A DNA stretch of 64,000 nucleotides from Acidobacteriota bacterium (GCA_040755995.1 JBFMAF010000036.1:160001-224000); one strand, 5' to 3'. Counted from the first letter of the stretch, positions 11,471-49,462 are shown. Notes: generated from the letters alone by a model not told the origin. Made by a program: numbers and translations.

Positions 11471-11518
11471 CTCAACTCGTGGCACCGTGTGGCGCCGCGT
11501 GATATACAATGCGGATGC

Positions 11519-31947: not shown

Positions 31948-33576
31948 TCAGGAGCTGTCCTCGGGCGCCGTGTCCTGAGAACCCGTCGGATTCTGGTCGA
32001 GCAGATCTCGCACCGCCCGAGCGAGGACCTCGATGCGATATGGCTTTTGCAGTAAACCGCAGATTCCCGGCGCGCGAAGCTCCTTCAACTGCCTGCTTCC
32101 CGCGTCGTAGCCGGTGGTGATGAGCACCTTGACATTCGGATTCAAGCGCCTCAGCTCCCGCAGCGTCTCGATGCCGCCAAGGCGAGGCATCACCATGTCC
32201 GCCAGCACCAGAGAGATCTCGCTCGTGTACTCGCGATACAGGTCCAAAGCGTCCAGACCATTCGAGGCCTCGAGGACACGGTATCCGAGTGTCTCCAGTG
32301 CCAGCCGCGTCATCTTCCGGACGTCCTGGTTATCCTCTGCGACCAGGATCGTCTCATTTCCCCAGGCTACTTCCGATTCCGCTGCGGTCTGATCCAGCGC
32401 CTCAGGCTTCATCAGCGGCAGATATACGTGGACGGTGGTTCCGAGCCCGACCCGGCTGCTGATGTCTACGGCCCCACCGCGGCACTCTACGAGCTGCCTG
32501 GCAATCGTCAATCCAAGCCCTGTGCCCTCTCCTCTTGCCTTGGTAGTGAAGAACGGGTCGAAGATGCGGGATCGGATGTCAGGCGGGATACCTGGTCCTG
32601 AATCCCGCAGGCTGAGGCGCGCGTAGTGGCCCGGCATGAGGGCCGGAGGCGCGGCCGGTGAGCCTTCTCCGACCCAGGCCTCCGCTGTGTCGATGCTCAG
32701 TGTGCCACCTTCCGCCATCGCATCTCTGGCGTTTATGGCCAGGTTCAGGACCACCTGGAGCAGCTGCGTAGGATCCACTTCGACCTGCAAGTCCTCGTCG
32801 GCCAGGTTCAAGGAGATCTCGATCGTTTCAGGGATGACCCGTTCCAGGAACTTGCGGGTCTCTTGGAGGAACGAATGGAGTGACAATCGGATGACGCCCT
32901 GTTCCGTCTCAGGATGGCTGAATGCCAACAGTTGCTTGGCCATCTGCGCCGCCCTCTCGCTCAGAAGCCGAATGTGAAGAAGCGCCTGGTGGGCGTTGCT
33001 CTCCCCATCTACATCCTGCAGGAGCAGCTCTGTGAATCCCATGATGCCCGTCAAGAGGTTGTTGAAATCGTGCGCCACACCGTCGACCAACATGCCCACG
33101 GCCTCGAGCTTCTGACTTCGGATGAGATCTTTCTGGAGACCGCTCACCTGTCCGGGGCTGCTGATGAGGAAGATGAAGATCCACCTCCGCCGAAGCTGGA
33201 GCAGTCTGGGTCTTACCTGAAGGTAGATCGTTCCCCCGTCCTTACGCCTGTATGCCTGCCGGCACCCGTTCCACACGTCCGTCTCCAACACGCGCTCCCT
33301 CTCGGTCCCGTCCCTGGGCGGCCCCGCAAGTTTGATGTCATCGATGGGCTTCCCATAGAGCTCGGCGCGCGAGTACCCAAGCAGCGAGCAGAAGACCGGA
33401 TCAGCATCTATCAGATTCCCATGGTCATCAACCGCGTAGAATCCAATGCCGGCCGGGCTCGTCTTCAGCATGTCCTCGGCGCGTGGCGGGTTGATCGGGT
33501 TGATTGAATGTCCGCTCGCGAAAGACGCTTCCGGCATATCAATCACATAGCTACCCTTCGGAGAGTACCCCTCCAT
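31948..33576 (-). CDS. Cytoplasmic hybrid sensor histidine kinase (PAS-HisKA-HATPase-REC)
   Basis: LLGYSRAEL.G, RRKDG (PAS); SQKLEAVG...GVAHDFNNLL; NLAINARDAM, DSGPGI, FFTTK..GEGTGLGL; LVAEDN, LADMVMP, LQKP. Confidence 0.93.
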   Translation of the reverse strand: MEGYSPKGSYVIDMPEASFASGHSINPINPPRAEDMLKTSPAGIGFYAVDDHGNLIDADPVFCSLLGYSRAELYGKPIDDIKLAGPPRDGTERERVLETDVWNGCRQAYRRKDGGTIYLQVRPRLLQLRRRWIFIFLISSPGQVSGLQKDLIRSQKLEAVGMLVDGVAHDFNNLLTGIMGFTELLLQDVDGESNAHQALLHIRLLSERAAQMAKQLLAFSHPETEQGVIRLSLHSFLQETRKFLERVIPETIEISLNLADEDLQVEVDPTQLLQVVLNLAINARDAMAEGGTLSIDTAEAWVGEGSPAAPPALMPGHYARLSLRDSGPGIPPDIRSRIFDPFFTTKARGEGTGLGLTIARQLVECRGGAVDISSRVGLGTTVHVYLPLMKPEALDQTAAESEVAWGNETILVAEDNQDVRKMTRLALETLGYRVLEASNGLDALDLYREYTSEISLVLADMVMPRLGGIETLRELRRLNPNVKVLITTGYDAGSRQLKELRAPGICGLLQKPYRIEVLARAVRDLLDQNPTGSQDTAPEDSS

Positions 33577-33846
33577 ATATATAGTTTCGCGAGTAGGCCG
33601 ATTCTCGCCGGCCAGAATCGATTTTTTTTGAAATTTTTTTTGTTTTGCCGGGCGAGTTTTGGGGGTTTCGCGAAACTTATTATATAGAGGGGATTTTGCA
33701 AGGATGTACGGCGTGAGAGGTTTTGGGGGTTGCAGGGGCCGAGATCCCGGGTGGACGCCAACGACACGGGTCCTGACCCCCGGCGATTGTCCCAGGCGCC
33801 GGAGACCACAAGTAGTACAATCTCAAGTCAAGAGGAGGACGAGTAG

Positions 33847-34041
33847 ATGACAATAATCAAGTGGGGTTTGCTGGGTTTGCTGCTAAGCCTATTGCTATCA
33901 GGTCCGGCATGGACACCTGCTCCGCCGACAGAAAGCCGCACCACCAGCGGATCGGGGAGCATAGGCCCGGGACAAGGCAATCCGCTGGAGAACGACCCCT
34001 GTTGCGATGTGGGCCTGTCTTGTTGCGAGGTGAAGAAGTAG
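33847..34041 (+). CDS. Small secreted peptide with a C-terminal CC-x5-CC motif
   Basis: AGGAGG RBS; signal peptide MTIIKWGLLGLLLSLLLSGPA; Ser/Gly linker; DPCCDVGLSCCEVKK; TACAAT upstream. Confidence 0.7.
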   Translation: MTIIKWGLLGLLLSLLLSGPAWTPAPPTESRTTSGSGSIGPGQGNPLENDPCCDVGLSCCEVKK

Positions 34042-34095
34042 CCGAGGAGTCTCAGACGCTCGATACGTTCGTCGCGACCCCGTGACGGACTGCCG

Positions 34096-37056
34096 TCACT
34101 GGTGGAATCTGGAGATTCGGCTGGGATCTCCTACGAGAACGAAGGCCGCCCACGTGCACGGGGCGCCGCCCTTTCCGGCCATTTCGACTTTGGCCTGCTG
34201 CAATGCAGATGACACGTCACGGCCGTTGGATAACATGCCACCATACATGTGGTCCATGAGCTCATTCGTCGCCACATCCTCCACGTTCCACAAGGAGGCG
34301 CATACACTGCCGGCGCCGGCAGCCAGGAACGCCCGGCTCAGGCCTATCGTCCCTTCGGCTCTTGTCTTCTGACCAGTGCCGGTCGAGCATCCGCCCAAGA
34401 CCACCAGGTCGGAGTCGACTCTGAGACGTTGAACTTCCGCGGCGGTCAAGACCCCGTCATCGCCTGACCCAGGATCATTTAGGGATAGCACGATCTCGGA
34501 CAGATCCCCCTCGACCGGGTCGGCGATGGCATGTGTGGCCAGGTGCACGATTCGGCTCGGAGTGGAGATGTCCTTCTTGAGGTTGGTTTCGTTCGCGTGG
34601 AAGTCCAGGCGGACTTCCGGATTCATGCCCGATTCCCGCGCCATGCGTGCGATTCCCAGGACTTCATCCCGCGTTGCCGGCAACCTGCGCAGTCCAGTCC
34701 GAAAACTGGGATACGACGCCGTGGAAGCGGGCATGCTCGGGACGCCCCCCGCGAGAAGGCTCTTCCTCGCTCTCTGATCCTCATCGCTGAATACCGGATC
34801 GCCGAACAGCACCAGCCTGTTCCCCGCATCACAATGCTGGCGGCTTCTGTTCTTGTCGATCTCGACCAGGACGGAAACCGACGGAGCATAAGTGACGGCG
34901 TGTTCCTGAACCAGGTATCGGAGTTCTGCGAACCCGGCTGCCCGGCTGTCCTCTGTCACCACAAGCGCCTCGATGGGAAGTCCGGCCAGCAGACTGTCAG
35001 CCACCACAACCAGGTCGCAATCCCGGATCAGACCCTCTGCCGGGAGAATGAGTTCTTTGTATAGGGTGTGTGCCGCCTGAGCATATTCCCGCACGAGCCC
35101 GGGTGGGGGCACACCTGCCGCGTACTGGCGCGCCAGGGCGGCCTGCCACTCGGCCACGTACCCATCCATCTTGTTCCAGTCGGATAGCCTGAACAGCTGC
35201 ACCGTGTCACTCTTCAACACGATCAAATAGCTTTCCCTGATCCCAGTCTGGTAGACGAGAATCGCGGTGCGCGGATGCCTCGATAGGAATTCTCTTTGAA
35301 CCTGGTCGGCGGACAAAGGTCTGATCGAGGGAGCCGCAGGTTCCGACCCGGATTCGATCTCGATTCTCCTTGCCACCAGGCCGCTCCGCCATCCTTCGAT
35401 GCGATCCAACTCAACTCGACTGAGCTCAATACCCGACTGCGCGACTGCAAGCCGCCGCCCGAGCGCCGAGATCCCTCTCAAGAGCGAAGGATCGCTCCAT
35501 CGATCCAGCCTGGTGTCTGCGGGAGCGCATGGTCCGTTGCCGCGCGAAACGTCAACGAGGAGCTCGCGGCTCCGGCACCGCTCCGCGTACTCGAAGGCCT
35601 TCCGAGCGTGCCCGGGGTCGTGGCTCTTCGAATCCAGCCTGTCAAGGCACATGACGATCTCAGTGCAGATGGCCTTCGCCTGGGAGAGGTATCTTTCCCG
35701 CAACTCCGGCACAGTCGCCTGCTCCCACGCACGCTCGACGTCGTCCAATGCCCGCTCGCAGAGGTCCATTGCCGCTCGGTGGTTTCCCGCCGCCATTTCG
35801 CCGTCGGCCAATGTCTGAAGCGCTCTACGGCGCGGCGCCGGATCCGGATCGTGAGGATCGCACAAGTCGGCTGCCTCTCTGGCCGAAAGCATCATCTTCT
35901 GGGCCTCGCCCAACCCAAAGTAGGCCGGGCCTTGGAGGTTGAGCACCGAGGCAATCTCATCTTGGAGGGCCGCTCGCCGAGCAAGCCCAAGCCCGTCTTC
36001 GAGCAGGCGTAGGCTCTCTGCATAGCGCCTGCTCTTCAGATTCGCGCGTGCGAGAGCGCATATGGCCTCCAACCTCGTACGCGGGTCCAGGCCGCTGCTC
36101 AGCTCGTACGCCCTCCTTGCGCAGTCCATCGATCGCTGGGAATCCTGGCCCCCGATCGAGTCGGCGTCGGCCACCCCAAGCAGGACTCGGTGTGTCGCAG
36201 GTGCCTCGACTCCCGCAAGCCGGCCTGCGTTGCGCAAGTGCACGCGGGCGAGCTCGGATCTCCCGAGGTAAGAGAAGATGTCGTAGAGCTGCAGCTGGAC
36301 CATCGCTTCGGAGACGTCTGCGGCCGCCAGCCCTCTAGCGTGCACACGTGCCTCGCGGAACCGGCCGATCGCCTCTGCATACAGCATCCGTCTGGCCAGC
36401 GACCTCCCCCTTTCGAGGGCCACGGCGTAGCTGCCGTATCTGAAATCAGATGCCCGGGCGGCCTCGTCGGCCCGTGCATAGCATTCCTCCGCCTCCGCGA
36501 ATCGCCCTCGCTCACGCAGATACTTGCCCATCGAAACATCGAGCCAGCAGATGGCTCGATCATTCCGGTGGCGTGCGGCCCAGCGCAACCCCTCGTTGTA
36601 CTGGCTGGCCACGTGGGCCTCGCTCCAGTCCTCTTCCATCTGCCCCGCCCTCAGCGAAAGCCAGTAGGTCCCGAACTGATCAGGGTCCAGGCCACACACA
36701 ACGACCATGTACCGCCCCGTCGACGGCAGGGTCGCGCTGATTCTCGGGTTGAAGAAGCAGTCCGAGTCATCACTCCATGCCAACTCGCGGCCCCGAGGAT
36801 CCACCAGCACCATGTGCGAGTTGAACTCGTAAGAACTGCATGCCAGGGTGACCTGTTGGCCGCGGGAGCCGGCGAATGACCAGCACTGGTGCGGACCGCG
36901 TGGCGCCCTGGCCCAGGAGGGATCGGTCTGGAGGAGGCTTCCGTGGCGCGTCTCGTCGAGCTTGATCTGCCGTTCGCCCTGGATGCTGAATCCATTGTGC
37001 AGCGCACAGAGTAGAGCCATGCTGCCGAGTACCGCGACAAACCCGCGCTGCTTCAT
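34096..37056 (-). CDS. Secreted PPC-like + TPR + CHAT (caspase-like) protease
   Basis: Signal peptide; F.GSRGQQVT..CSS.EF...MVLVDP.G..LAWSDD...LPSTGRY (PPC); TPRs; AFEYAERCRSR, LPIEAL, YAPSVS, LPATRDEV, HLATHA, LVVLGGCSTG, GLSRAFLAAGA, WAAFVLVG. Confidence 0.9.
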   Translation of the reverse strand: MKQRGFVAVLGSMALLCALHNGFSIQGERQIKLDETRHGSLLQTDPSWARAPRGPHQCWSFAGSRGQQVTLACSSYEFNSHMVLVDPRGRELAWSDDSDCFFNPRISATLPSTGRYMVVVCGLDPDQFGTYWLSLRAGQMEEDWSEAHVASQYNEGLRWAARHRNDRAICWLDVSMGKYLRERGRFAEAEECYARADEAARASDFRYGSYAVALERGRSLARRMLYAEAIGRFREARVHARGLAAADVSEAMVQLQLYDIFSYLGRSELARVHLRNAGRLAGVEAPATHRVLLGVADADSIGGQDSQRSMDCARRAYELSSGLDPRTRLEAICALARANLKSRRYAESLRLLEDGLGLARRAALQDEIASVLNLQGPAYFGLGEAQKMMLSAREAADLCDPHDPDPAPRRRALQTLADGEMAAGNHRAAMDLCERALDDVERAWEQATVPELRERYLSQAKAICTEIVMCLDRLDSKSHDPGHARKAFEYAERCRSRELLVDVSRGNGPCAPADTRLDRWSDPSLLRGISALGRRLAVAQSGIELSRVELDRIEGWRSGLVARRIEIESGSEPAAPSIRPLSADQVQREFLSRHPRTAILVYQTGIRESYLIVLKSDTVQLFRLSDWNKMDGYVAEWQAALARQYAAGVPPPGLVREYAQAAHTLYKELILPAEGLIRDCDLVVVADSLLAGLPIEALVVTEDSRAAGFAELRYLVQEHAVTYAPSVSVLVEIDKNRSRQHCDAGNRLVLFGDPVFSDEDQRARKSLLAGGVPSMPASTASYPSFRTGLRRLPATRDEVLGIARMARESGMNPEVRLDFHANETNLKKDISTPSRIVHLATHAIADPVEGDLSEIVLSLNDPGSGDDGVLTAAEVQRLRVDSDLVVLGGCSTGTGQKTRAEGTIGLSRAFLAAGAGSVCASLWNVEDVATNELMDHMYGGMLSNGRDVSSALQQAKVEMAGKGGAPCTWAAFVLVGDPSRISRFHQ

Positions 37057-37229
37057 TTGAGACTTCCCGGGCCTCGGAGCGGCGACGCAGCTCTCAAGGC
37101 CTGACCTGCACTCTTCCGACGGGTCCGCGCGGCCTCCGCCGTTCCCACCAGCAAGAGCTGCTATTGCAGGACTATGAACTAGAGCTACTATCTCGACCTG
37201 TGAACTCGATCAGCCTAGCAGACCCCCTC

Positions 37230-37273
37230 TGAAAAAGCAATCGCATGCAAGTGAAAAAGCAATCGCATGCAAG
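37230..37273. repeat. Perfect 22-bp tandem duplication in the CHAT/sigma divergent region
   Basis: TGAAAAAGCAATCGCATGCAAG x2 (37230-37251, 37252-37273). Confidence 0.9.
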
Positions 37274-37661
37274 TGGGTGGTGGTGGCAAGCGCGCAAGCG
37301 GGTGGTGGGCGGGGGCGCGTTGGCGACGGAGCGACGGGAGAGACGAGCAGAGGGGTCCGGCCGACTGTCCAGGCGGATACCCCGCAACGTCACGAGAGGC
37401 CGCCCGTGGAAGCCGCGGCCGCGGCGGTTGTGGTAGTATTCGAGCCATGATCTGGCCCTGGCGCACGCACCGCATTCCTGTGGAGCGAGGGCTCGGGCCG
37501 CCAGAAGGGCCGCCGGAGCCACATCTCGTCACGCAGGACGCGGCCGGCACCGGCCCCGACGGTGGAATGCCACACGGCATGTGCCTCTCCCGGCTGCTAA
37601 CTACTAGAAACCAAAGACAACACATGCGTTTCCGGACCCGTTCCGGCGCAAGGTAGACCTC

Positions 37662-38216
37662 ATGAGCGCCGAGCTTTTCGCCATGATGAAGCGCGCCCAA
37701 GAGGGTGACCCCGAAGAAAAAAACAAACTTTTTTCGTTTTTGCGGGCGAGAATTGGCACTCTCGCGAAACTATATATATGGGGGGATGATATTGAGGAGG
37801 TCGTTCAGGAGACGATGATGGTGGTCACCAGCCAGTTCCCCTCTTTGAGGACCCCCGAGGCTCTGATCGCGTTCGCCAACAAGGTACTTCGAAACAAGAT
37901 GGGGAATTTGTACAAGCGGCGAGATAGCCGAAAGGCGTTGCTGGTGAGCCTGGAGGAGCTCGAGGAGCACCCCTTCTACACCGTCGAAGAATGGGGTCCT
38001 GGAAAGCTTCATGAGATAGTGTTCGAGGCGATCGAGCTGCTTGGGAATTCGAGGCCGGTCTGCCGCGATCTGCTGATGGGGCTGCTGGCGGGGGAGACCA
38101 GCGAGGAACTGTGCCAGAGTCTGAGCATCCCTCCCCACAGGCTCGATGATCGCGTATACAAGTGTCGTAGTGCTTTGCGGCGGATACTCCGTGAGAGGTG
38201 GGGTCTCCGTGTGTGA
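37662..38216 (+). CDS. ECF-family RNA polymerase sigma factor
   Basis: RAQEGD, DIEEVVQET, VLRNK; region 4 CRDLL...GETSEELCQSL......RVYKCRSALR. Confidence 0.82.
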   Translation: MSAELFAMMKRAQEGDPEEKNKLFSFLRARIGTLAKLYIWGDDIEEVVQETMMVVTSQFPSLRTPEALIAFANKVLRNKMGNLYKRRDSRKALLVSLEELEEHPFYTVEEWGPGKLHEIVFEAIELLGNSRPVCRDLLMGLLAGETSEELCQSLSIPPHRLDDRVYKCRSALRRILRERWGLRV

Positions 38217-38408
38217 CGAACGGTCTACAGACGCCGCGCGAACTGAGGAGGTGGCCCAGATGAAGCCAGTGACACCACAACGCGGTCCTGTGCCTGCGGC
38301 GACTGTGCCTCCTGGCACGATGTGCCGCCGTCCGAACAACTGCCGTTCCAGTCGTCCCGTTGCGTCGCCGCCGTCAGAGCGGCAAGGACGATTCTGCGAG
38401 CCACTCCG

Positions 38409-39218
38409 ATGACCGAACTGAAATGCACGAATCCCGAAGCCGGGAAGCTGATCGGGCGGTATGAGCTGGGTGCGCTTGACGATGCTCTGCGCGAGGAGTT
38501 CGTGAAGCATCTGTTGGAGTGTGAGTTCTGCCACAATGAGCTGTTGGTCATGGCCCCGTTCACGGACGTGCTCCGCGAGTATCGCGAGGCGGTCATGCGC
38601 GGCGAGGTGCCTGCGCCTTCACGCCGGGCACCGGCTCAACCAAGGATCGCGGCATGGCGCAGAGCGAATGGAGTTCGGCTGGCCGCTGCTGCGTCACTGG
38701 TCGTAGCCATCAGCGTCGGAGCCCTGATCTGCATGTATCAGCTCATGAAGGAGCCTGGCGAAGATCAAGGCGCTGCGCTGCAGCTGCCGGGCGGTGTGAC
38801 GATCCCCAAGGCGCCGTTTGTCGCGGGCCCCGAGGTGCCGGTCACTCGCAGCCAGGAATTCGGCGACACGTTCCAAAGAGCAATGGCTGCTTACGAACGG
38901 GACGACTTCGCGACCGCAGCCGAGCGGCTCGAGGTTCTGTGCAGGCTTGTTCCAGACCACGCAGATGCACAATTCTACTGGGGGGTATCGCTGCTTTTCG
39001 CCGGAAGACCCGATGATGCCATCGTACCCCTCAGGAAGGCGATAAGGCTCAACACCGGGCACCAACAGGAGGCCTGCCGGTTCTACCTGGCTGCAGCATA
39101 CGTCAAGAGCGGCCGGATGGATGAGGCGCTTGCCGAGTTGGGAAACGTCATTGCCCTGGGCGGGCAACACGGGGAGGATGCCGAGAAGCTCAAGAGTATT
39201 GTGACCCGCATGAAGTAG
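38409..39218 (+). CDS. Membrane-anchored zf-HC2 (ZAS) anti-sigma factor with extracytoplasmic TPR domain
   Basis: YELGAL....EEFVKHLLECEFC (HxxxCxxC); TM LAAAASLVVAISVGALICMY; TPRs (AQFYWGVSL, CRFYLAAAY). Confidence 0.85.
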   Translation: MTELKCTNPEAGKLIGRYELGALDDALREEFVKHLLECEFCHNELLVMAPFTDVLREYREAVMRGEVPAPSRRAPAQPRIAAWRRANGVRLAAAASLVVAISVGALICMYQLMKEPGEDQGAALQLPGGVTIPKAPFVAGPEVPVTRSQEFGDTFQRAMAAYERDDFATAAERLEVLCRLVPDHADAQFYWGVSLLFAGRPDDAIVPLRKAIRLNTGHQQEACRFYLAAAYVKSGRMDEALAELGNVIALGGQHGEDAEKLKSIVTRMK

Positions 39219-39295
39219 AACGCAACCTGAGTGCTCGTTTCGGCGCGGCTTGTACGCGTCGGAACGGCAATGGAATAACCGGGGACTGAGAGGAT

Positions 39296-39481
39296 ATGTT
39301 TGTCAAATCAGAAGAGCTGTTGCTCGCCGCAACAAGACACTGCAACACCAAGTCTGTAGGAACAACTGAATCGGAAGCAGCGAGTCAGATCGGTGTTGTC
39401 GAGGAACATGTCTTGGCGGCCGATCCGGCTCTTAGCTGTGCGTCATTCCTGCAGCGACACTGCGCAAGGGGTCTAGTCTGA
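39296..39481 (+). CDS. Possible small leader ORF coupled to the megasynthase
   Basis: GAGAGGA RBS before ATG 39296; its TGA overlaps the megasynthase ATG (TGATG). Confidence 0.3.
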   Translation: MFVKSEELLLAATRHCNTKSVGTTESEAASQIGVVEEHVLAADPALSCASFLQRHCARGLV

Positions 39482-42400
39482 TGATCAATGAAGAAATGGG
39501 TCCAGCCGTAGATTGTGCGACGCTCCTCGAGCTTCTGAAATCGAGAGCGCGTTCTCAACCTGACCAGCGCGCCTACACCTTCCAGACCGACGGTGCGTCC
39601 GAAGAGCTGCATCTGACGTACGCCGAGCTGGATCGGAGAGCGAGAGCCGTAGCAGCGAAGTTGCAGTCGTTGGGTGCGCCAGGTGGACGCGCCATGCTCC
39701 TCTATCCGCCGGGTTTGGACTACATAGCGGCGTTTTTCGGGTGCCTCTACGCGGACGTCGCCGCCGTGCCCGTCTATCCTCCACGCCCTAACCGCCCCAT
39801 GTCCAGGTTCCTCGCCATCTTCGAAGATGCCCAGGCCGGCGTGGCCCTGACGACCTCCGCGATTCTCCCCGTCGTCGACGCTGTTCTGGGGCGGGATGAG
39901 AAGACGAATTGGATTGCCACCGACGAGACTCCCGGCGACCTGGCACAAACCTGGGATGAACCGCCCGTGCGCGGCGATACCCTCGCGTTCATCCAGTACA
40001 CATCCGGCTCAACATCCAGCCCCAAAGGCGTGATGCTCACGCACGCCAACCTGCTTCACAATCTCGACACGACCTATCACGCGTTCGGGATCACCCCCGG
40101 AAGCCGTGCGGTCATCTGGTTGCCGCCCTATCACGACATGGGCTTGATCGGGGGAATCCTTCAGCCGCTCTATGGGGGCTTTCCGGCGGTCCTGATGTCC
40201 CCCATGACCTTCCTCCAGCAACCGTATCGGTGGCTCCACGCTGTTTCTCGTCACAGGGCCACGGTCAGTGGAGGCCCGAATTTCGCATACGATCTCTGCG
40301 TTCGCAAGATCACGGCCGAGCAGCGAGCGACGCTGGACCTCAGTAGCTGGGTCGCGGCATTCAACGGCGCGGAACCGATCAGGCCGGAGACGATCGATCT
40401 ATTCACGAAGACGTTCGAGCCGTGCGGCTTCAGGAGGGAGGCGTTCTACCCCTGTTACGGGCTCGCAGAAGGCACGTTGATCGTATCCGGCGGCAGCGTG
40501 GCTGACCCGCCGGTCGTGAAGGGGTTCCGGCCGGATGCGCTCGCACAGCACCACGCAGCCGAGTGCGCCATTTCGGACGCCAACGCAAGAAAACTCGTCA
40601 GCAGCGGCCGCGCCGTCGGCCGGCAGCGAATCGTTGTTGTCGATCCCGAGACCCTGATCACGCTGGAGCCCGGCGGCGTCGGCGAGGTCCTGGTATCAGG
40701 CCCGAGTATCGCCCGCGGCTACTGGAATCGGCCCGACGAAACGGCCCGGACGTTTGCAGCCTTCTTGTCGAGCAACGCGGATGGCCCGTTTCTCCGAACC
40801 GGCGACCTCGGGTTTCTTCATGATGGCGAGTTGTTCATCACGGGACGCATCAAGGACCTGATCATCATTCGCGGCCGCAATCACTACCCGCAGGACATCG
40901 AAGCGACCGTCGAGAAGTGCCACCCGGCGATCCGGCCCGGATGCGCGGCGGCATTCTCAGTGGAAGCCGATGAAGAAGAACGTCTCGTGGTTGCCACGGA
41001 AATCAAGCGTGAGCATCGCGGCGAAGACTTGGTTGACGTGATCGACGCCATCCGCCAGGCGATCACAGAGGAGCACGAGATCCAGCTTCACGCAGCGGTG
41101 CTGCTCAGGCCCGGCAGTCTCCCGAAGACATCGAGCGGGAAGGTACAACGTCACGCGTGCCGCGCCGCGTTTCTTGTCGGCGAGCTCGAGGCGGCAGGCG
41201 AGTGGAAGGAGTCTGCGGTCATCACTCAGCCCGACACGCTGGTCGAGTCCCAGGAGCAGTTCGAGAGATGGCTCACGGATCAGCTCGCCGCCCGGCTCAG
41301 GGTCCCGTCCGCGTCGATTGATGCGCACCAGTCGCTGAACCGCTACGCCCTCGACTCCTTGAATGCAATCGAGCTGGCGCATGTGATCGAGCAGCAGGTG
41401 GCCGTTCACATTCCCCTGGAGAGGATCTTCGAGGGGCCGACTATCGCCGAACTGGCTCGCGAGGCGTGGGCACGACGGACAGCACCCGCCCGGCCGTACG
41501 TTCCTGCTCCACCCGCCGAATCGATGACCAAACACCCGCTCTCGGCCGGCCAGCGAGCGCTCTGGTTCTTGCATCAACTGGAGCCCGAGAGTGCGGCTTA
41601 CAACGTCCCCGCCGCCGTCCGTCTTCTGGGCGACCTGGATGTCCCGGCGCTCCATCGAGCATTCGGATCCCTCGCCGGCCGGCACCCCATCCTGCGAATG
41701 ACCTTCGCATCCGTCGGCGGCGAACCCGTCCAGGAAGCTCGTAACGATCCGAGCTTCGAGCAGCTCGACGCATCCACCTGGGACGACGAAGCGGTGCGGA
41801 AGCAACTCAACGACGAGGCCAACCGGCCGTTCGATCTGCAACGCGGTCCCCTGATGCGAGTCCGGCTCCTGCGCAGGTACGATCGCGAGCATCTTCTCAT
41901 GCTCAACATGCACCATATCATCACCGACTTCTGGTCGCAGGCAGTGATCATGCGGGATCTCGGCCAACTGTACGAGGCCGAAAGGAGCGGCCGCGCTGCG
42001 GATCTCCCGTCTCTGGCTCTCCAGTATTCTGATTTCGCTCGCATCCAGGACGAGATGCTGGGCGGGCCGGAAGGAGAGCGGCTCCGAGCCTTTTGGCAGA
42101 AGCAGCTCGCGGGCGAGCTGCCGATCCTGAATCTGCGCACGGATCGGCCCCGCCCACCGGTCCAGACCTATCGCGGTGCGGTGCAGCCCGTCACGGTCGA
42201 CGAGGACGATTGGAGCCGGTTGAAGGATCTCGGCCGCAGAAACAATGCAACCCCGTTCATGACGCTCCTCGCCGCCTTCCACGTCCTGCTCCGCCGCTAC
42301 ACCGGGCAGCGCGACATCGTGATCGGCGCACCCATGGCGGGGAGAAGCCGGGCACAGCTATCCAACATGCTGGGATACTTCGTCAACCCGGTCGCTCTGC

Positions 42401-45400
42401 GCACGGAGTCCTCCGGTGATGCCACCTTTTCCGAGCACCTCGCACGCGCCAGGCGGACTGTGCTCGGCGCCTTCGAACACCAGGACTACCCGTTCGCCAC
42501 CGTAGTCGAACAAATTCAGCCGGCGCGCGACCCGAGCCGCACGCCGGTGTTCCAGGTCATGCTCGCCCTGCAGAATGCGCCTGCATTCGAAGGACAGAGC
42601 CTTACTCCCTTCGCGCTGGGCGCCGGGGATGCTCGTGTCCAGTGGTGCGGGCTTTCGCTTGAATCGTTCCCGCTCGATCATTCGATTGCCCAGTTCGACC
42701 TCACTCTGAACGCCGGCGAAGTCGACGGAGCGCTGCGCGGAGCACTGAACTACAACACCGATCTCTTCGACGCATCCACGATCGCAAGGATGGCGCGGCA
42801 TTTCCAGCAGCTACTCCGGAGCATCGTCGCCGCCCCGCACCAGCGGCTCTCCGAGTTGCCCATTCTCACCGAAGCCGAGGAACGGCGGCAGACGGTGGAG
42901 TGGAACTCGACGCACCAGGAGTTTCCGGTGGACTCCTGCATACACGAGCTGTTCGACGCTCAGGCATCGCAGACCCCCGACTCGGTCGCCGTGATCTTCC
43001 AGGACCAGAAGCTGACCTACCGGGACCTCGCACGAAAGGCGGATCTGCTGGCTGCGCGCCTGCGGGCGCTGGGAGTCGGCCCAGAGGCTCTCGTGGGAAT
43101 CTGCATGGAAGGCTCCATCGAGATGATCGTGGCCATCGCCGGCGTCCTGAAGGCGGGCGGCGCGTACGTGCCTCTAGATCCCCTGTATCCGATCGAGCGC
43201 CTGGCGTTCATGATCGAAGATGCCTGTCCTCAGTTGGTATTGACGCTGGAGAAGCACCAGCCATCGCTTCCACCCGCTGCGCTCGCGATCAGCCTCGATG
43301 CCGCCTGGGACGTACCCATCTACACGGGGGCTGCGGCCCCTGCTGCCGCCAGCAGCAATGCCGCCTGCCTGATCTATACCTCGGGTTCGACGGGCGAGCC
43401 GAAAGGAGTCGTCATTACTCATCGGAGCATTGTGAACCTGATCACGTCTTTCGTGCGGAGCTACCGGGCCGACGAGACTGACCGCGTACTCCCGCTCACG
43501 GCCGCGACTTCGGCAAGCTTTGTCGGCGAGATACTCCCGATACTGTGCACCGGCGGAGCCGTCGTGCTGCCGGACAGGGAGGAGACGCTGGATTTCACCA
43601 AGCTCTTTGAGCTCCTCGCGCGCCACGGCGTGACAATCCTCAGCACCGTCCCTGCGATGGTCCGGATGATCAACCAATTGAAGGACCGGCTGCCGAAGCT
43701 GAGGCTACTGATGAGTGGGGGCGAAGCCCTCATGGCATCAGACATTGACAAGCTTCTCGATACGGCAACGCTCATCAATGGATACGGCCTGACCGAGACC
43801 ACGATCTGCTCCACCTATCGCCGCCTGGACAAGTCCGATCTCATGTCCCCTGGAGCCGTCTCCATCGGCAAGCCTGTGATGAACAACCGGGTCTACATCC
43901 TGGATGAAGATCTCCGCAGTTGCCCGATCGGATCGCCGGGAGAGATGTACGTTGCCGGAGACGGACTGGCCAGGGGCTACCTGAACAACGCGGGATTGAC
44001 GGCGGAGAGGTTCATTCCGTGCCCGTTCGAGCGCGGTGAACGGATGTACCGAACCGGTGACCTGGCCGCATGGTTGCCCGACGGCGGCATCGAGTTCCTG
44101 GGCCGGATCGACCACCAGGTTAAGATCCGCGGCTTCAGGATCGATCTGGGCGAGATCGAGACCGTCCTGGACAGCCACCAGGGCGTGCGGGAATCGCTCG
44201 TGAGGCTCCGGGCTGATGTCCCCGGAGAGAAGCACCTGGTCGCCTATATCGTGCCTCGCGATGAAAAGGCGGCGCCCACGGCAGGCGACCTCCTCGACTT
44301 CCTCCGTTCGAAGCTGCCCGGCTACATGGTGCCGTCTGCATTCGTCGTCCTGGATGCGGTGCCGCGCCTCTCGAGCGGGAAGATCGACTTCAACAGCCTG
44401 CCGGTCCCCGAGGGTGCGCGGCCCGAGCTGAGAGCGGAGTTTGTCGCTCCGCGCAGCGAGCTGGAGGAAATCATCGCGAGGGTCTGGCGGGATGCATTGC
44501 GGGTCGAGAAGGTCGGCATCAACGACAACTTCTTCGACCTGGGCGGGCACTCGCTGCTCCTCACGAAGGTCCACACGCAGATCCGTGACGCGCTCAAGAG
44601 AGACCTGTCGCTGATCGATCTATTCAGGTACCCGACAGTGAGCGCGCTCGCGCGGCATCTGAGTCCGCGAGAGACGGACGAGCCGCTGCAGATTCAGAGG
44701 AGCGTCGAGCACGCGGCACGGCGCCGGCAAGCGAGGGATGTGTCGCAGAGAGAGATCGCCATCATCGGAATGACCGGCCGGTTCCCCGGCGCCAGGGGTG
44801 TTGAAGCTCTCTGGGACAACCTGCGAAACGGCGTTGAGTCGATCACGTTCTTCACGGACGATGAGCTCGAGGCCCTCGGGATCGACCGCTCGCTGTTAAG
44901 CAACCCCGACTACATCAAGGCCAAGGGAATCCTGGGAGACATCGATCTCTTCGATGCCCACTTCTTCGGACTGAATCCTCGCGAAACGGAGCTGATGGAT
45001 CCGCAGCACCGCCTGATGCTCGAGTGCTGCTGGGAAGCGCTCGAACGAGCGGGATACGATGCGGACCGGTACCAGGGCAGGGTGGGCGTCTACGCCGGCG
45101 AGAGCATGAACACCTACTTGATCACGAACCTACTCTCGCACATGGAGCTCGTGGCATCGGTTGACACTCTGCAGGCATCGCTCGGTAATGACAAGGACCC
45201 GCTCACGTCTCGGGTCTCATACAAGCTCAACCTCAAGGGCCCGAGCATCACCATACAATCCGCATCGTCGACGTCCCTGGTCGCAGTACATGTCGCCTGC
45301 CAGAGTCTGCTGGACTACGAGTGCGACATGGCGCTGGCAGGCGGGGCGTCGATACACCTGCCGGAGAAGTCGGGATACCTCTTCCACGAGGGTGGCACCA

Positions 45401-48400
45401 CCTCCCGGCACGGTCATTGCCGGGCATTCGACTCACAGGCGGACGGCTTCGTCAGCGGGAACGGCGTCGGAGTCGTGGTGCTGAAGCGCCTGGCCGATGC
45501 GCTGGCCGACGGCGACAACATCTATGCGGTGATCAAGGGCTCCGCCTGCAACAACGACGGATCGGAGAAGGTGAGCTTCATGGCGCCGAGTGTGGAGGGA
45601 CAGGTGGAGCTCTACACCATGGCCCACGCGATCGCAGGCGTTTCTCCGGACTCCATCTCCTACGTCGAGGCTCACGGCACCGGCACGGCGCTCGGTGACC
45701 CGATCGAAATCGAGTCGCTGACGCAGGCCTTCCGCACAAGTTCCGACCGCAAGGGCTACTGCGCGATCGGGTCGCTGAAGACGAACATCGGCCACCTCGA
45801 CACGGCCGCCGGCGTCTGCGGCCTCATCAAGGCCGCCATGGCACTCCATCACAAGATGATCCCCCCTACGCTCCACTTCCAGGCGCCCAATCCACAGATC
45901 GACTTCGAAAACAGCCCCTTCTTCGTCAATACAGAGTGCCGGGAGTGGAAGACGAACGGAACGCCGAGAAGGGCTGGGGTGACGTCTTTGGGGATGGGCG
46001 GTACCAACGCGCATGTCATCCTCGAGGAGGCGCCGCAGCTGAAGCCGTCGGGTGATTCGAGATGCCGGCAGCTTCTGGTGCTCTCCGCCAAGACCGCCAC
46101 CGCGCTGGAAGCGCAAACGGCGAGCCTCATCGAGCATCTGAAGCGCAGCCCGGACGCGGATCTCGCCGACGTCGCCTACACGCTTCAGTGCGGCCGGCAG
46201 CGGTTCAACCACCGCCGGACGGCGCTCTGCGAGAGCTCGGAAGACGCGATCGCCGCGCTCGAGACGCTCGATCCCGACCGCGTCGCAGACGCGACCGAAG
46301 AACCGGGCGATCGATCTCTTGTGTTCATGTTCACGGGGCAGGGGGCACAGCACGTCGACATGGGGTTGGGACTGTACAGATCGGAGCCGGTCTTCAGAGC
46401 GGAGGTGGATCGCTGCTCCGAGCTGCTGGAGCCTCATCTCGGATTCGATATCAGGACGATCATCTATCCACCCGAGGAATCCTCCGAGACGATGACCGAG
46501 CGGCTTCGGCAGACAGCCGTCGCTCAGCCCGCGCTGTTTCTCATCGAATATGCCCTCGCGAAGCTCTGGACGAAGTGGGGTCTGCGCCCGCAGGCCATGA
46601 TCGGTCACAGCCTGGGCGAGTATGTGGCGGCATGTCTGGCAGGCGTAATGGCGCTCGAAGACGCACTCAAGCTGGTGGCAGTCCGCGGCCGCCTGATGCA
46701 GCAGATGCCGCCAGGCTCGATGCTCGCCGTGCCGCTGCCCGACACGGAGCTCCAGCCTCTGCTGGGTCCCGGTCTCTCGATCGCCGCGATCAACCACCCG
46801 TCGCAGTCTGTCGCCTCGGGCGACGAGGACGCCATCAGGGAGTTGGAGGAGCAGATGGGCGCACGGGGCATCGCATGCCGTCGCCTGCAGACGTCGCACG
46901 CTTTCCACTCGCAGATGATGGACCCGATGTTGGCGGTTTTCACCGAAACGGTGTCGAAGGTGGCGTTGAAGCCCCCAAGACTCCCCTACATCTCGAATGT
47001 GACCGGCACATGGGTTCGACCGGAGCAGGCGACGGATCCGGCATACTGGGCACGGCAGCTCCGCCACGCCGTCCGATTCGCCGACGGGCTGGCCGAGCTT
47101 CTGAGAACCCCGCGGCAGGTGCTCCTCGAGGTCGGGCCCGGAAGCAGCCTCAGCACGCTCGCCCGCCAACACCCAATGCGTGCGACCCATCATGTCGTGG
47201 TCTCGTCTCTCCCGCATCAGAAAGAGCGCAACCCCGACGATGCGCACGCACTGAAGACGCTCGGCAGGCTCTGGCTCGCCGGTCTTGACGTCGATTGGCC
47301 TGCTTTCTACGAGGGAGAACGCCGCCGCCGCGTCTTGCTTCCCACGTATCCACTCGAACGGCGCCGGTACTGGGTCGAGCCGAAGAAGTCTGACGGGGTC
47401 GGCCGCAGGACAACGGGAGGCAGGCGCAAGATCGATGAGTGGTTCTATGCGCCGATCTGGAAACAGTCGCGAATAGCCAACCTGCGCAGGACCGGGAGTG
47501 CCGGCAATGGGACGTCTACGTGGCTGCTGTTCTGCGACGAGCTGGGGCTGGGATCGAGACTGGCAGCCAGATTGAAGGCCGCGGGCCACACGATTGCCCT
47601 GGCAGGCATCGGAGACCGATTCCGAAGGCGCGCCGACGGCCAGTTCGAAATCGATCCGGCGGATCGACGCGACTACGATCTTCTTCTGCAGGCCATCCGA
47701 TTCGAGCCTTCGGCTGTCGTGCATCTCTGGGGCGTCGGCCGAGGCAGGAGCGGGAATGGATCGGACCGCGCCCGCGACGATCGAATCTTCACCAGCCTTC
47801 TCTACCTCGCTCAGGCTCTCGGGAAACAGAGCTCCGCTGGTCCCCTGCGCCTGTGGGTTGTCAGTGACGGCCTTCACGAGGTGACAGGAGAAGAAGTGTT
47901 AAGTCCGGAGATGGCGACGATACTCGGCGCCTGCCGCACGATACCGAATGAGTACGGCAACATCACCTGCCACAGCCTTGACGTTGTGGTCCCGCATTCG
48001 GGGCTCGATGACCTTGCAGATCAGGTACTGCGCGAGCTCACACTGGATGCGCCCGGGACTGTCATGGCGCTGCGAGGGAAGTCTCGATGGGTTCAGAGCT
48101 ACGAGCACGTCGCGCTCAACGGTCTTGATGGACAGACGAGGCGTCTGCGCGAAGGCGGCGTCTACTTGGTCACGGGCGGTCTCGGCGGCATCGGCATGGA
48201 GCTCGCAACGTACCTCGCGCAGCGAGCACGGGCCAGGTTGGTGCTCATCGGGCGGTCACCGTTCCCGCACAGAAACGAGTGGGAGAGTTGGCTCACGTCG
48301 CACGACAGCCATGACCCGACGTGCCGGCAGATCATGCGGCTTCGCGCCCTGGAGCACCTGGGCGCGGAGGTGCTCGTTCTGCGCGCCGACGTTGCGGACC

Positions 48401-49353
48401 TGGAGCAGCTGCGAGCGGTGAAAGCCGCGGCGCGCGCGCGATTCGGAGGGGTGAACGGAATCATCCATGCGGCTGGTGTACCGGGAGGCGGCCTCATACA
48501 GACCAGGACTCCGCAATCGGTTGAGGCCGTGTTCGCTCCGAAGATCCTCGGGACGCTCAACCTCGACGAGGTCTTCAAGGACGAACCACTGGACTTCGTG
48601 GTTCTGTGTTCGTCGATCACCTCGATACTGGGCCATGTCGGCCAGGCGGACTATGCCGCGGCCAGTGCTTTCCTCGACTCCTTCGCTTGCCACAAGACGG
48701 ACACGGATCGAGTCTACTGGGTCTCAGTGAATTGGGATGCCTGGCAATCCGTGGGAATGGCGGTCAACACTCCGGTGCCGGCCGAGCTGCGAGAGTGGCG
48801 GCAGGAGGAGCTGCGCAAGGGGATTCTTCCCGCAGAGGGCGTCGATGTCTTCGCGCGCATCCTTCAGAGCGACCTCCCGCAGGTCGTAGTCTCGACTCAG
48901 GACCTGCAGACGCGGATGGAGCACCGGGGAGTGCCCGTGAATCTGGAGGAGTCAGGGAAGCCGCAGGAGCTTCATCCGAGACCAGTGCTCGGAAACGCCT
49001 ACGTGAGTCCGGCGAGCGAATCAGAACGGACCATCGCGAGAATCTGGCAGGAACTGCTGGGCATCGAGCAGGTCGGAGCCCACGACAATTTCTTCGATCT
49101 GGGCGGCAACTCGCTGATCGCTCTTCGGATCATCGCGCGCATGAAGAGCGAGCTTGGCGTCACGCTGCCGGATGTGAGCCTGTTCGAAGCTCCGACCGTT
49201 CGCAGTCTCGCCAGAATTCTGGCTCCGGCGTCCGCCGGCGAACCCGCTCTCGAAGAGAGCCGCAGCAGGGGCGAGATGCGGAGGGCGCGAGCGCCTCGAC
49301 GTCGTGACCCCCTGACACCACAGCAGCCCGAAGCGGTTCCGGTCAGGAGTTGA
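39481..49353 (+). CDS. Hybrid NRPS-PKS: FAAL-ACP-C-A-PCP-KS-AT-KR-ACP
   Basis: FAAL (QYTSGST, WLPPYHDMGLIG, GRNHYPQDIE); ACP LDSL; C HHIITDFWS; A YTSGSTGEPKG/YRTGD; PCP LGGHSL; KS MDPQHR/HGTGT; AT GHSLG/HAFHS; KR GGLGGIG/HAAG; ACP LGGNSL. Confidence 0.95.
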   Translation: MINEEMGPAVDCATLLELLKSRARSQPDQRAYTFQTDGASEELHLTYAELDRRARAVAAKLQSLGAPGGRAMLLYPPGLDYIAAFFGCLYADVAAVPVYPPRPNRPMSRFLAIFEDAQAGVALTTSAILPVVDAVLGRDEKTNWIATDETPGDLAQTWDEPPVRGDTLAFIQYTSGSTSSPKGVMLTHANLLHNLDTTYHAFGITPGSRAVIWLPPYHDMGLIGGILQPLYGGFPAVLMSPMTFLQQPYRWLHAVSRHRATVSGGPNFAYDLCVRKITAEQRATLDLSSWVAAFNGAEPIRPETIDLFTKTFEPCGFRREAFYPCYGLAEGTLIVSGGSVADPPVVKGFRPDALAQHHAAECAISDANARKLVSSGRAVGRQRIVVVDPETLITLEPGGVGEVLVSGPSIARGYWNRPDETARTFAAFLSSNADGPFLRTGDLGFLHDGELFITGRIKDLIIIRGRNHYPQDIEATVEKCHPAIRPGCAAAFSVEADEEERLVVATEIKREHRGEDLVDVIDAIRQAITEEHEIQLHAAVLLRPGSLPKTSSGKVQRHACRAAFLVGELEAAGEWKESAVITQPDTLVESQEQFERWLTDQLAARLRVPSASIDAHQSLNRYALDSLNAIELAHVIEQQVAVHIPLERIFEGPTIAELAREAWARRTAPARPYVPAPPAESMTKHPLSAGQRALWFLHQLEPESAAYNVPAAVRLLGDLDVPALHRAFGSLAGRHPILRMTFASVGGEPVQEARNDPSFEQLDASTWDDEAVRKQLNDEANRPFDLQRGPLMRVRLLRRYDREHLLMLNMHHIITDFWSQAVIMRDLGQLYEAERSGRAADLPSLALQYSDFARIQDEMLGGPEGERLRAFWQKQLAGELPILNLRTDRPRPPVQTYRGAVQPVTVDEDDWSRLKDLGRRNNATPFMTLLAAFHVLLRRYTGQRDIVIGAPMAGRSRAQLSNMLGYFVNPVALRTESSGDATFSEHLARARRTVLGAFEHQDYPFATVVEQIQPARDPSRTPVFQVMLALQNAPAFEGQSLTPFALGAGDARVQWCGLSLESFPLDHSIAQFDLTLNAGEVDGALRGALNYNTDLFDASTIARMARHFQQLLRSIVAAPHQRLSELPILTEAEERRQTVEWNSTHQEFPVDSCIHELFDAQASQTPDSVAVIFQDQKLTYRDLARKADLLAARLRALGVGPEALVGICMEGSIEMIVAIAGVLKAGGAYVPLDPLYPIERLAFMIEDACPQLVLTLEKHQPSLPPAALAISLDAAWDVPIYTGAAAPAAASSNAACLIYTSGSTGEPKGVVITHRSIVNLITSFVRSYRADETDRVLPLTAATSASFVGEILPILCTGGAVVLPDREETLDFTKLFELLARHGVTILSTVPAMVRMINQLKDRLPKLRLLMSGGEALMASDIDKLLDTATLINGYGLTETTICSTYRRLDKSDLMSPGAVSIGKPVMNNRVYILDEDLRSCPIGSPGEMYVAGDGLARGYLNNAGLTAERFIPCPFERGERMYRTGDLAAWLPDGGIEFLGRIDHQVKIRGFRIDLGEIETVLDSHQGVRESLVRLRADVPGEKHLVAYIVPRDEKAAPTAGDLLDFLRSKLPGYMVPSAFVVLDAVPRLSSGKIDFNSLPVPEGARPELRAEFVAPRSELEEIIARVWRDALRVEKVGINDNFFDLGGHSLLLTKVHTQIRDALKRDLSLIDLFRYPTVSALARHLSPRETDEPLQIQRSVEHAARRRQARDVSQREIAIIGMTGRFPGARGVEALWDNLRNGVESITFFTDDELEALGIDRSLLSNPDYIKAKGILGDIDLFDAHFFGLNPRETELMDPQHRLMLECCWEALERAGYDADRYQGRVGVYAGESMNTYLITNLLSHMELVASVDTLQASLGNDKDPLTSRVSYKLNLKGPSITIQSASSTSLVAVHVACQSLLDYECDMALAGGASIHLPEKSGYLFHEGGTTSRHGHCRAFDSQADGFVSGNGVGVVVLKRLADALADGDNIYAVIKGSACNNDGSEKVSFMAPSVEGQVELYTMAHAIAGVSPDSISYVEAHGTGTALGDPIEIESLTQAFRTSSDRKGYCAIGSLKTNIGHLDTAAGVCGLIKAAMALHHKMIPPTLHFQAPNPQIDFENSPFFVNTECREWKTNGTPRRAGVTSLGMGGTNAHVILEEAPQLKPSGDSRCRQLLVLSAKTATALEAQTASLIEHLKRSPDADLADVAYTLQCGRQRFNHRRTALCESSEDAIAALETLDPDRVADATEEPGDRSLVFMFTGQGAQHVDMGLGLYRSEPVFRAEVDRCSELLEPHLGFDIRTIIYPPEESSETMTERLRQTAVAQPALFLIEYALAKLWTKWGLRPQAMIGHSLGEYVAACLAGVMALEDALKLVAVRGRLMQQMPPGSMLAVPLPDTELQPLLGPGLSIAAINHPSQSVASGDEDAIRELEEQMGARGIACRRLQTSHAFHSQMMDPMLAVFTETVSKVALKPPRLPYISNVTGTWVRPEQATDPAYWARQLRHAVRFADGLAELLRTPRQVLLEVGPGSSLSTLARQHPMRATHHVVVSSLPHQKERNPDDAHALKTLGRLWLAGLDVDWPAFYEGERRRRVLLPTYPLERRRYWVEPKKSDGVGRRTTGGRRKIDEWFYAPIWKQSRIANLRRTGSAGNGTSTWLLFCDELGLGSRLAARLKAAGHTIALAGIGDRFRRRADGQFEIDPADRRDYDLLLQAIRFEPSAVVHLWGVGRGRSGNGSDRARDDRIFTSLLYLAQALGKQSSAGPLRLWVVSDGLHEVTGEEVLSPEMATILGACRTIPNEYGNITCHSLDVVVPHSGLDDLADQVLRELTLDAPGTVMALRGKSRWVQSYEHVALNGLDGQTRRLREGGVYLVTGGLGGIGMELATYLAQRARARLVLIGRSPFPHRNEWESWLTSHDSHDPTCRQIMRLRALEHLGAEVLVLRADVADLEQLRAVKAAARARFGGVNGIIHAAGVPGGGLIQTRTPQSVEAVFAPKILGTLNLDEVFKDEPLDFVVLCSSITSILGHVGQADYAAASAFLDSFACHKTDTDRVYWVSVNWDAWQSVGMAVNTPVPAELREWRQEELRKGILPAEGVDVFARILQSDLPQVVVSTQDLQTRMEHRGVPVNLEESGKPQELHPRPVLGNAYVSPASESERTIARIWQELLGIEQVGAHDNFFDLGGNSLIALRIIARMKSELGVTLPDVSLFEAPTVRSLARILAPASAGEPALEESRSRGEMRRARAPRRRDPLTPQQPEAVPVRS

Positions 49354-49462
49354 GACGGCAATGCGGCCCATTCGTTGTCATCGGCTGCTGAGGGCCGGAT
49401 CGCAGCCGTCGCGTCAGCACACTTCTCGGAGATGGTTCGGGCTATTAAGCGGAGCGTTTGAA

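Follow-up and report, generated by a model that had tools for sequence, protein, structure and literature searches.

We analysed a stretch of 64,000 nt from an Acidobacteriota bacterium (GCA_040755995.1, JBFMAF010000036.1:160001-224000), hereafter the window, which carries a cassette of four genes predicted to encode a sigma factor of the extracytoplasmic function (ECF) type, its membrane-bound anti-sigma, an exported protease with tetratricopeptide repeats (TPRs) and a CHAT domain, and a small secreted peptide. Coordinates are counted from the start of the window; other loci are labelled L001 and so on, genomes G000 (the source genome) and so on, and contigs C24, C36 and so on. The gene for the 64-aa peptide, which bears a CC-x5-CC motif (33847..34041, plus strand), has a good Shine-Dalgarno sequence and lies tail-to-tail with the gene for a 986-aa PPC-like/TPR/CHAT protein (34096..37056, minus strand), predicted to be an exported caspase-like protease. 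Divergent from the latter is the gene for the 184-aa sigma factor (37662..38216, plus strand), followed by that for an anti-sigma composed of a ZAS domain, a transmembrane (TM) helix and TPRs (38409..39218, plus strand). Beyond the anti-sigma starts the first gene of a hybrid nonribosomal peptide synthetase-polyketide synthase (NRPS-PKS) cluster (39481..49353, plus strand; Pfam), a neighbour and not a part of the conserved cassette. On the other side, a hybrid PAS-HisKA-HATPase-receiver kinase (31948..33576, minus strand; Pfam) occupies the position divergent from the peptide gene, which we call the output slot. A preliminary description of the same DNA had named the cassette genes and set the co-directional NRPS-PKS about 260 nt beyond the anti-sigma; all lie at the positions given there, the last gap being 262 nt.

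The CHAT domain is assigned by Pfam with 191.9 bits (E 2e-56). The His/Cys dyad previously read from the motifs HLATH and LGGC is present in caspase order, and H838, H842, C890 and D927 are invariant in the 18/18 aligned CHATs (codons of H842 and C890 at 34531-34533 and 34387-34389); D927, of a WxVxD motif, presumably lines an Arg pocket. The structure model (pLDDT 81.8) combines a caspase-like domain with a beta domain and an extended solenoid of TPRs. Its best Foldseek matches are Csx29 (8eey), DdvA (8rot) and separase, with low whole-chain TM-scores (0.2-0.4), and a sequence search of PDB returned TPR matches only. The PPC part of the architecture proposed earlier is weak (E 0.019 here, 0.0002 at best in a relative, sub-threshold in 5/5 proteins tested), though an all-beta domain is modelled at residues 35-137. 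Export is predicted from the hydrophobic N-terminus (mean Kyte-Doolittle hydropathy 2.3).

The anti-sigma probably starts at MTELKC (38409), an alternative GTG frame from 38322 being longer. It scores below the zf-HC2 cut-off (20.2 versus 22.2 bits), its counterpart in L031 reaches 29 bits, and the zinc ligands C6, H34, C38 and C41 are invariant across the aligned anti-sigmas. The model shows three N-terminal helices, a TM helix at about 91-109, a coil at 114-148 and three TPRs (149-268), the last forming an ectodomain with a fold resembling the peptide-binding domains of SycD, CHIP and Hop. HxxxCxxC with an upstream ligand, a three-helix domain, a single TM helix and a gene at +1 of the sigma are the features of a transmembrane ZAS protein. 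The coil holds a conserved pattern, [IV]PKA..P..x[LMT]R, and its Arg147 (codon 38847-38849) is kept in 17/18 loci.

The sigma factor matches Sigma70_r2 and TIGR02937 below cut-off only (33.5 versus 42.9 bits for the latter); its roughly 40% identical paralogue on C24 passes the TIGR02937 cut-off (57.1 bits) and also matches r4_2. With regions 2 and 4 only and about 180 aa it has the composition of an ECF (group 4) sigma factor, and its relatives number 13 representatives at E<1e-30 and 185 at E<1e-10. Between the CHAT and sigma genes (37230-37318), 22 nt are duplicated exactly in tandem, and a degenerate pair of 25 nt comes next; this may be an operator or a duplication scar. The peptide has a signal sequence (hydrophobic N-terminus), a variable linker and the C-terminal CC-x5-CC; it has no Pfam, NCBIfam or ESM Atlas match, and no homology to known pheromones was found.

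Conservation of the cassette in Acidobacteriota

Judged by their co-occurrence, sigma, anti-sigma, exported CHAT and CC-x5-CC peptide form one conserved, CRISPR-free unit in Acidobacteria. A profile of 20 sigma sequences retrieved 21 genome loci and 48 metagenome loci. Among the 33 loci with a sigma above 200 bits (a set that contains near-duplicates and in which the window, L001 and L017 are counted), the anti-sigma was detected in 32 and the CHAT protein in 28, and all five misses are at contig ends. Eighteen long loci were retained, excluding the duplicates L046, L050, L052, L056 and L058 and truncated loci and keeping the near-copies L055, L057 and L059. All four genes occur together in 18/18 of these; the order is sigma, anti-sigma, CHAT in 14, the CHAT gene is divergent in three (including the window) and the cassette is split in one. 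The peptide gene stands beside the CHAT gene in every long locus, convergent on it in 17, and the four cysteines are invariant (18/18); four truncated loci and four distant ones yielded no peptide.

The source genome has a second cassette on C24, with about 40% identity in each of the three large proteins. That the gene grouping is more than chance follows from its repetition there and in relatives with unrelated flanks. The second cassette (L001:4208-16282, G000 C24:234-246 kb) is split by a TPR gene, a gene for a 1731-aa RHS/immunoglobulin-like protein and two small toxin-antitoxin-like genes.

The relatives with a stated taxon belong to Acidobacteriota, many of them to Blastocatellia, with a looser tier with shorter anti-sigmas in Zixibacteria and Ignavibacteria. 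In a sample of 401 Acidobacteriota genomes, sigma matches at 1e-20 were present in 14 and matches above 200 bits in three (five sigmas), and the close family is therefore rare. A word-index homologue search returned the query itself only, and viral contigs gave no match. No Cas family was detected among the 31 proteins of the window or 63 flanking proteins of relatives, and the three cas1 genes of the source genome are on other contigs, which bears out the CRISPR-independent character ascribed to the unit. The suggested co-occurrence with a biosynthetic gene cluster fared less well than that of the four genes, with NRPS/PKS domains in just 2/24 related loci and never directly after the anti-sigma. 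Literature searches, in which subscription papers were largely outside coverage and an earlier mention may be missed, returned no description of the cassette.

A probable promoter family and its copy in the sigma gene

The sigma factor very probably reads a promoter with an extended -10 element common to the family (GCGAAACT) and a -35 element specific to each paralogue, firing two back-to-back copies (for the peptide and the output gene) and a few distant sites. In the window, the putative peptide-facing promoter (33631..33696, plus strand; repeat family D1; position weight matrix (PWM) score 91) has its -35 at 33651-33657 and its -10 at 33670-33678. Back-to-back with it stands the putative kinase-facing promoter (33564..33629, minus strand; repeat pairs I1 and I2; PWM score 80), with -35 GGCGAGA at 33609-33603, 12 nt and the extended -10 GCGAAACTA at 33590-33582. 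A third copy of the motif (37725..37790, plus strand; -35 at 37745-37751, -10 at 37764-37772) lies inside the sigma gene, in the region 2.1 codons for residues 22-43, and faces the anti-sigma gene. As far as sequence can tell, the sigma thus has bipartite -35/-10 promoters of the ECF kind in its own locus.

The sigma-gene segment 37725-37785 (61 nt) has one repeat at 33631-33691 (75%) and an inverted one at 33569-33617 (84% over 49 nt). Four further copies were found elsewhere in the genome, two of them near-duplicate, after which the next match falls from E 1e-9 to 0.005. When 46 sigma region-2 segments were compared, several non-paralogue matches of at least 44/60 were obtained for the window sigma (sigma1) alone, the C24 paralogue (sigma2) giving 39-41. 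Sigma2 carries a different version of the motif in the same codons and has ten other sites, one ahead of its own peptide gene. Together with the six sites of sigma1 this gives 16 in the source genome, 11 of which lie outside any open frame of at least 200 codons.

Of the two matrices, the one for its own class gives either coding copy the higher score (82.6 versus 13.5 for sigma1, 61.8 versus 41.0 for sigma2). Because the coding copy had guided the choice of the original seeds, the matrices were rebuilt from two local sites alone (for sigma1 those on the peptide side): the sigma1 coding copy is then the top non-seed match of the genome, and the sigma2 copy is ninth, behind eight other sigma2 sites (30.4 versus 17.2 for the next match). 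Under synonymous recoding, 0/1e6 sequences reach the observed score for either gene and either codon model, codons of 2-16% usage having been chosen, and GC content at third codon positions is 0.41 in the motif stretch versus 0.74 in the rest of the sigma gene. The intragenic match is thus preserved at the DNA level. A reading of the motif as an RNA hairpin was rejected, the GCGAGA/TCTCGC symmetry of sigma1 sites being lost in sigma2 sites, and a sigma-70 consensus scan was uninformative.

The genes downstream of the sites in the source genome comprise two peptides, four hybrid PAS kinases, a CheW/CHASE3 cluster, secretin/PKD genes, TPR-RHS genes, an ion channel, an ECF sigma with an S8 protease and genes without functional assignment. 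A sigma1-class site precedes the TPR-RHS genes within the C24 cassette, and cassette 1 may therefore control genes inside cassette 2. Tandem sites, one of the sigma1 and one of the sigma2 class, stand 102 nt apart at L002:8551-8718 (G000 C33:60.6 kb) before a single gene for a 223-aa secreted protein without Pfam family, and this gene would be wired to both cassettes. At L112:3392-4076 (G000 C3:107 kb), a sigma2-class site lies ahead of a further divergent ECF sigma with an S8 protease, which may point to a cascade of sigma factors. Near-identical promoter and PKD/secretin genes occupy two contig ends (L004, G000 C20:1-344, and L003, C51:73.7-77.7 kb), reflecting a duplication or an assembly split.

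Across the 18 long loci, a peptide-facing site reaching at least 13/16 was found in 14, a divergent site in 12 and both in 11, scores that at most 2% of shuffles reach, with -35 classes taken from these loci themselves. Seven of eight Blastocatellia-type loci have a back-to-back pair before the peptide gene with the same -10 and spacing and a -35 of TG(A/T)AACC, a common ECF type. This pattern, drawn from the same loci, gives 13 matches versus 1.15 expected in shuffles; applied strictly to five genomes it returned just two already-known sites. The Blastocatellia-type sigma genes lack the intragenic copy (scores -5.7 to -18.1).

The -35 varies with the sequence of region 4.2: DDRxY goes with GCGAGA (window, L021), DEWL with GCAAGA (L001, L022), DKRL with GGGAGA (L030, L031), DKRV with GGAAGG (L027) and KVxTF with TGAAAC (seven loci with sites). 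The -35 classes thus track region 4.2 residues, as expected of a promoter family read by protein. With a 28-site model further sites were found in five other genomes; five more distant genomes gave model matches inside the sigma gene only (three) or none (two), with zero non-coding sites. The sigma tree leaves the ancestry of the intragenic copy undecided (two changes, weak backbone). At L103:271-336 (minus strand), downstream of a distant sigma (78 bits), a stretch resembles that sigma's own region 2.1 at both elements; the resemblance is weak and was missed by the family model.

A proposed proteolytic relay and its rivals

The explanation that fits best overall, and which we hold to be slightly better than an even call, is a regulated-proteolysis relay of the RseA/DdvA kind whose site-1 protease would be a separate exported TPR-CHAT protein, in effect a split DdvA. 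The DdvA/DdvS pair of Myxococcus xanthus (PMC11506125, PDB 8rot) likewise joins an ECF sigma, a ZAS-type cytoplasmic domain, one TM helix and an extracytoplasmic TPR-CHAT with a His-Cys dyad. For DdvA it is proposed that CHAT cuts the linker close to the TM helix and that RseP acts next, the activity of its CHAT being unproven (PMC11506125). There, however, CHAT is fused to the anti-sigma, whereas the two are separate genes in 18/18 loci here; the targets here are not CBASS/CRISPR, and the cassette adds an anti-sigma ending in three TPRs and a predicted secreted CC-x5-CC peptide.

In the proposed relay, the zinc domain of the anti-sigma would in all likelihood hold the sigma at the membrane, as ZAS/ECF pairs do. 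Upon a signal, it is rather likely that CHAT would cut the outer anti-sigma linker, most readily after Arg147, and that an RseP-type protease would then free the sigma; an RseP-like M50 protease of 454 aa is encoded in the source genome. The freed sigma is strongly expected to fire the back-to-back promoters of the peptide and the output gene (here the hybrid kinase), plus the few distant sites. The copy inside the sigma gene would quite probably make more anti-sigma, a negative loop as in rseAP3 and PrshA. The sigma-induced peptide, closed by disulfides, may on balance feed back on CHAT or on the anti-sigma TPR.

The linker region near PVTRSQ, guessed in the preliminary description to be the cleavage site, does hold the near-invariant Arg147 within an unstructured coil between TM helix and TPRs, where cleavage is a prediction. 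Arg147 would be a reasonable P1 candidate because separase cuts after Arg and the CHAT of DdvA faces its own linker (PMC11506125). The ExxR motif that separase needs is not conserved in the anti-sigma linker. An Arg specificity of CHAT is suggested solely by this conserved residue. A substrate-mimic loop in CHAT was considered and rejected: some loci do have an LR-like stretch ahead of RLPA, but loops pair only weakly with the linker of their own locus (mean 10.1 versus 8.4, p 0.04, 16 related loci) and the best matches are frequently elsewhere in the loop.

Several observations weigh against the relay and the promoter reading on which it builds. The linker of L027 has Gly in the Arg147 column, and the source genome contains 14 CHAT matches (12 strong), just two of them in cassettes of this type; because most of the 14 lack a cassette-type sigma, CHATs in this genome have other jobs too. 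Five of the 16 promoter sites overlap an open frame of at least 200 codons, and the -35 classes used for scoring were derived from the 18 loci and the Blastocatellia-type loci they score. L042 and L048 share the same region 4.2 and have different coding -35 elements; L043 has KVRTF in region 4.2, yet its coding -35 does not fit. The intragenic copy is not universal: in 14 close loci the sigma gene has no model match, one cassette (L018 and L027, counted once) keeps an upstream motif absent from its own sigma gene, and the sigma gene of G404 holds a motif-like segment with no other site in the genome. Resemblance of sites to their own sigma gene is modest, 14.6 versus 13.3 of 19 core bases for 18 sites in five other genomes (10/720 relabellings as good), partly because four sites of G001 are of the GGAAGG class, whose sigma gene lacks a copy. 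For the 12 sites outside the model the values are 14.3 versus 13.5 (44/720 relabellings as good), with the own gene best in 4/12. The strongest own-gene case is that of L017 (G001), with 32 identical bases between the coding copy and the divergent site.

The place of the peptide differs in part from that in the preliminary description, which had it as the upstream trigger. Its membership of the cassette stands, and the peptide gene is itself preceded by the sigma-type promoter (in 14/18 loci), so that the peptide would be an output and feedback part rather than only a trigger. In peptide quorum sensing (RRNPP, agr, ComCDE) a secreted peptide induces its own gene through a cognate receptor; what was observed here is the sigma motif at the peptide gene. 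Whether the feedback peptide would act as an activator (autoinducer) or an inhibitor, we rate about equally likely. A fuller scheme is possible though doubtful, in which the TPR-CHAT would sense the sigma-induced, disulfide-closed peptide outside the cell as autoinducer and cut the anti-sigma after the conserved Arg, parallel cassettes would be insulated by peptide, protease-linker pair and region 4.2/-35, the coding-sequence promoter would serve as a brake, and read-through might add the 50-kb lipopeptide cluster.

The output slot, divergent from the peptide gene, is a conserved position, filled here by the hybrid PAS kinase. In the 18 loci it holds a hybrid kinase in four (window, L022, L027, L032), a NusG-family gene in five and an NRPS condensation gene in one (L044); the others have an ABC permease, TauD, a sigma-54 activator or genes without functional assignment, and the slot is cut off in two. 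The NusG-family paralogues (e.g. L025:15130-15630, L029:14967-15485, L057:15067-15588), which we take to be RfaH/LoaP-like, would be a way to switch on long operons. A search for such paralogues in the source genome gave zero matches and was too insensitive to count because the housekeeping nusG was also missed.

The synthetase cluster extends over at least 50 kb (C36:199-251 kb). Its first domain is presumably a fatty acyl-AMP ligase, hence a lipopeptide product; Pfam gives AMP-binding only. The preliminary description made this cluster the purpose of the cascade, with the peptide as upstream trigger, a rival that we now consider unlikely. It draws on the co-directional NRPS, close behind the anti-sigma with no terminator-like site scored between them, so that the intragenic promoter could read through. 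It also draws on output slots of relatives, taken by an NRPS condensation gene in L044 and by a NusG-family gene in L025, L029, L055, L057 and L059, and on the presence in L025, L028 and L049, no more than 10 kb away, of PKS, phosphopantetheinyl transferase, thioesterase or RamC-type lanthipeptide genes. Control of the cluster nevertheless found no support: no motif was found before the CHAT, sigma, anti-sigma or NRPS genes or at three later NRPS-PKS junctions (best -19 or lower versus 79-92 for true sites), and the scanned genes downstream of other sites in the source genome include no synthetase. CHAT, not a synthetase, follows the anti-sigma in 14/18 cassettes, and a 12-bp hairpin without U-tail lies directly past the anti-sigma stop. 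The window NRPS occupies the position that CHAT holds in those 14 cassettes, and the cluster has taken the place of the CHAT gene downstream of the anti-sigma in the source genome. At most, and only tentatively, it might be a read-through target of the intragenic promoter, through the anti-sigma gene. The cassette family touches specialised metabolism in some lineages, by a count of neighbours that has no control for chance frequency.

It is improbable, though less so than the reading dismissed below, that the regulon is real and CHAT, instead of cutting the anti-sigma, processes the peptide (e.g. at Asp before CC) or another envelope protein, the matured peptide then binding the anti-sigma TPR while a housekeeping site-1 protease cuts. 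An Asp does stand 1-3 residues ahead of the first CC in most peptides, the anti-sigma ectodomain has the peptide-binding kind of fold noted above, and the peptide and CHAT genes stay adjacent even in L001, where sigma and anti-sigma sit 7 kb away. Against this, the residues around the linker Arg vary and the Arg itself is kept, which is what a P1 residue would show, and in DdvA the CHAT fused to a ZAS-TM anti-sigma faces the linker (PMC11506125). Least probable by far is that the motif is read through RNA or has the sigma gene as its source (self-templated specificity or gene conversion) and is not read by protein alone: the similarity does span about 60 nt, spacer and flanks included, with the 32 identical bases in G001, but the promoter family persists in lineages whose sigma gene lacks the copy, the -35 goes with the residues of region 4.2, and sigma2 targets are closer to each other than to the coding copy.

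Known systems and neighbouring genes

The cassette would work like DdvA/DdvS and Csx29/Csx30 and is a member of neither. In type III-E systems (Csx29/Csx30/CASP-sigma, PMC10028731) a TPR-CHAT cuts a sigma inhibitor in trans, and there too the sigma motif occurs in the own locus; Csx29 is the top Foldseek match. That system is cytoplasmic, gated by Cas7-11 and RNA, with a soluble Csx30 (PMC10028731), whereas the cassette has a membrane-bound ZAS anti-sigma, a predicted export signal and no cas gene nearby. With the III-E sigma model, which has a cut-off of 100, its sigma reaches 19.6 bits.

Promoters read by an ECF sigma within its own coding region and driving the anti-sigma gene are described as rseAP3 (Escherichia coli rpoE, PMC8595263) and PrshA (Corynebacterium glutamicum sigH, PMC3489674). 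In contrast to these, the copy here is placed in region 2.1, some 620 nt ahead of the start of the anti-sigma gene, is about 60 nt long, shifts in step with the paralogue-specific -35 and is present in some lineages and absent in others. The group ECF54 has a conserved TPR-CHAT neighbour with a suggested regulatory role (PMC7826278 supplement), but is 100% actinobacterial, without anti-sigma and with a subtilase and a carboxypeptidase-regulatory-like domain (PMC7826278); the cassette is set apart from it by its anti-sigma and by relatives in Acidobacteriota. Separase, with its securin, shares the TPR-like and caspase-like folds and cuts after Arg (PMC11506125); it differs in being eukaryotic and cytoplasmic and in needing the ExxR motif.

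For thousands of bacterial TPR-CHAT proteases neither substrate nor trigger is known, and the few that have been studied are tied to CRISPR or to DdvA, for which proteolysis is a hypothesis. The cassette names a candidate substrate and bond (Arg147), a candidate ligand (the 40-aa mature peptide) and a three-promoter reporter, and the second cassette, which differs in peptide, linker and -35, offers a natural specificity control. An extracytoplasmic CHAT as site-1 protease, and its switch, thereby become directly testable. The region 4.2/-35 series would provide orthogonal ECF switches, and a sigma whose promoter is legible from its own coding sequence would allow regulon prediction in uncultured Acidobacteria.

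Elsewhere in the window we detected a 1300-aa Ser/Thr kinase with TPRs (4629-8531), a pair of a ParD-like antitoxin and a Zeta-toxin-family kinase (9975-10936; Pfam) and two long open reading frames of 1096 and 701 aa without Pfam match (11489-17053). A CBM9/DUF5916 protein is encoded between the first two synthetase genes (49361-51820).

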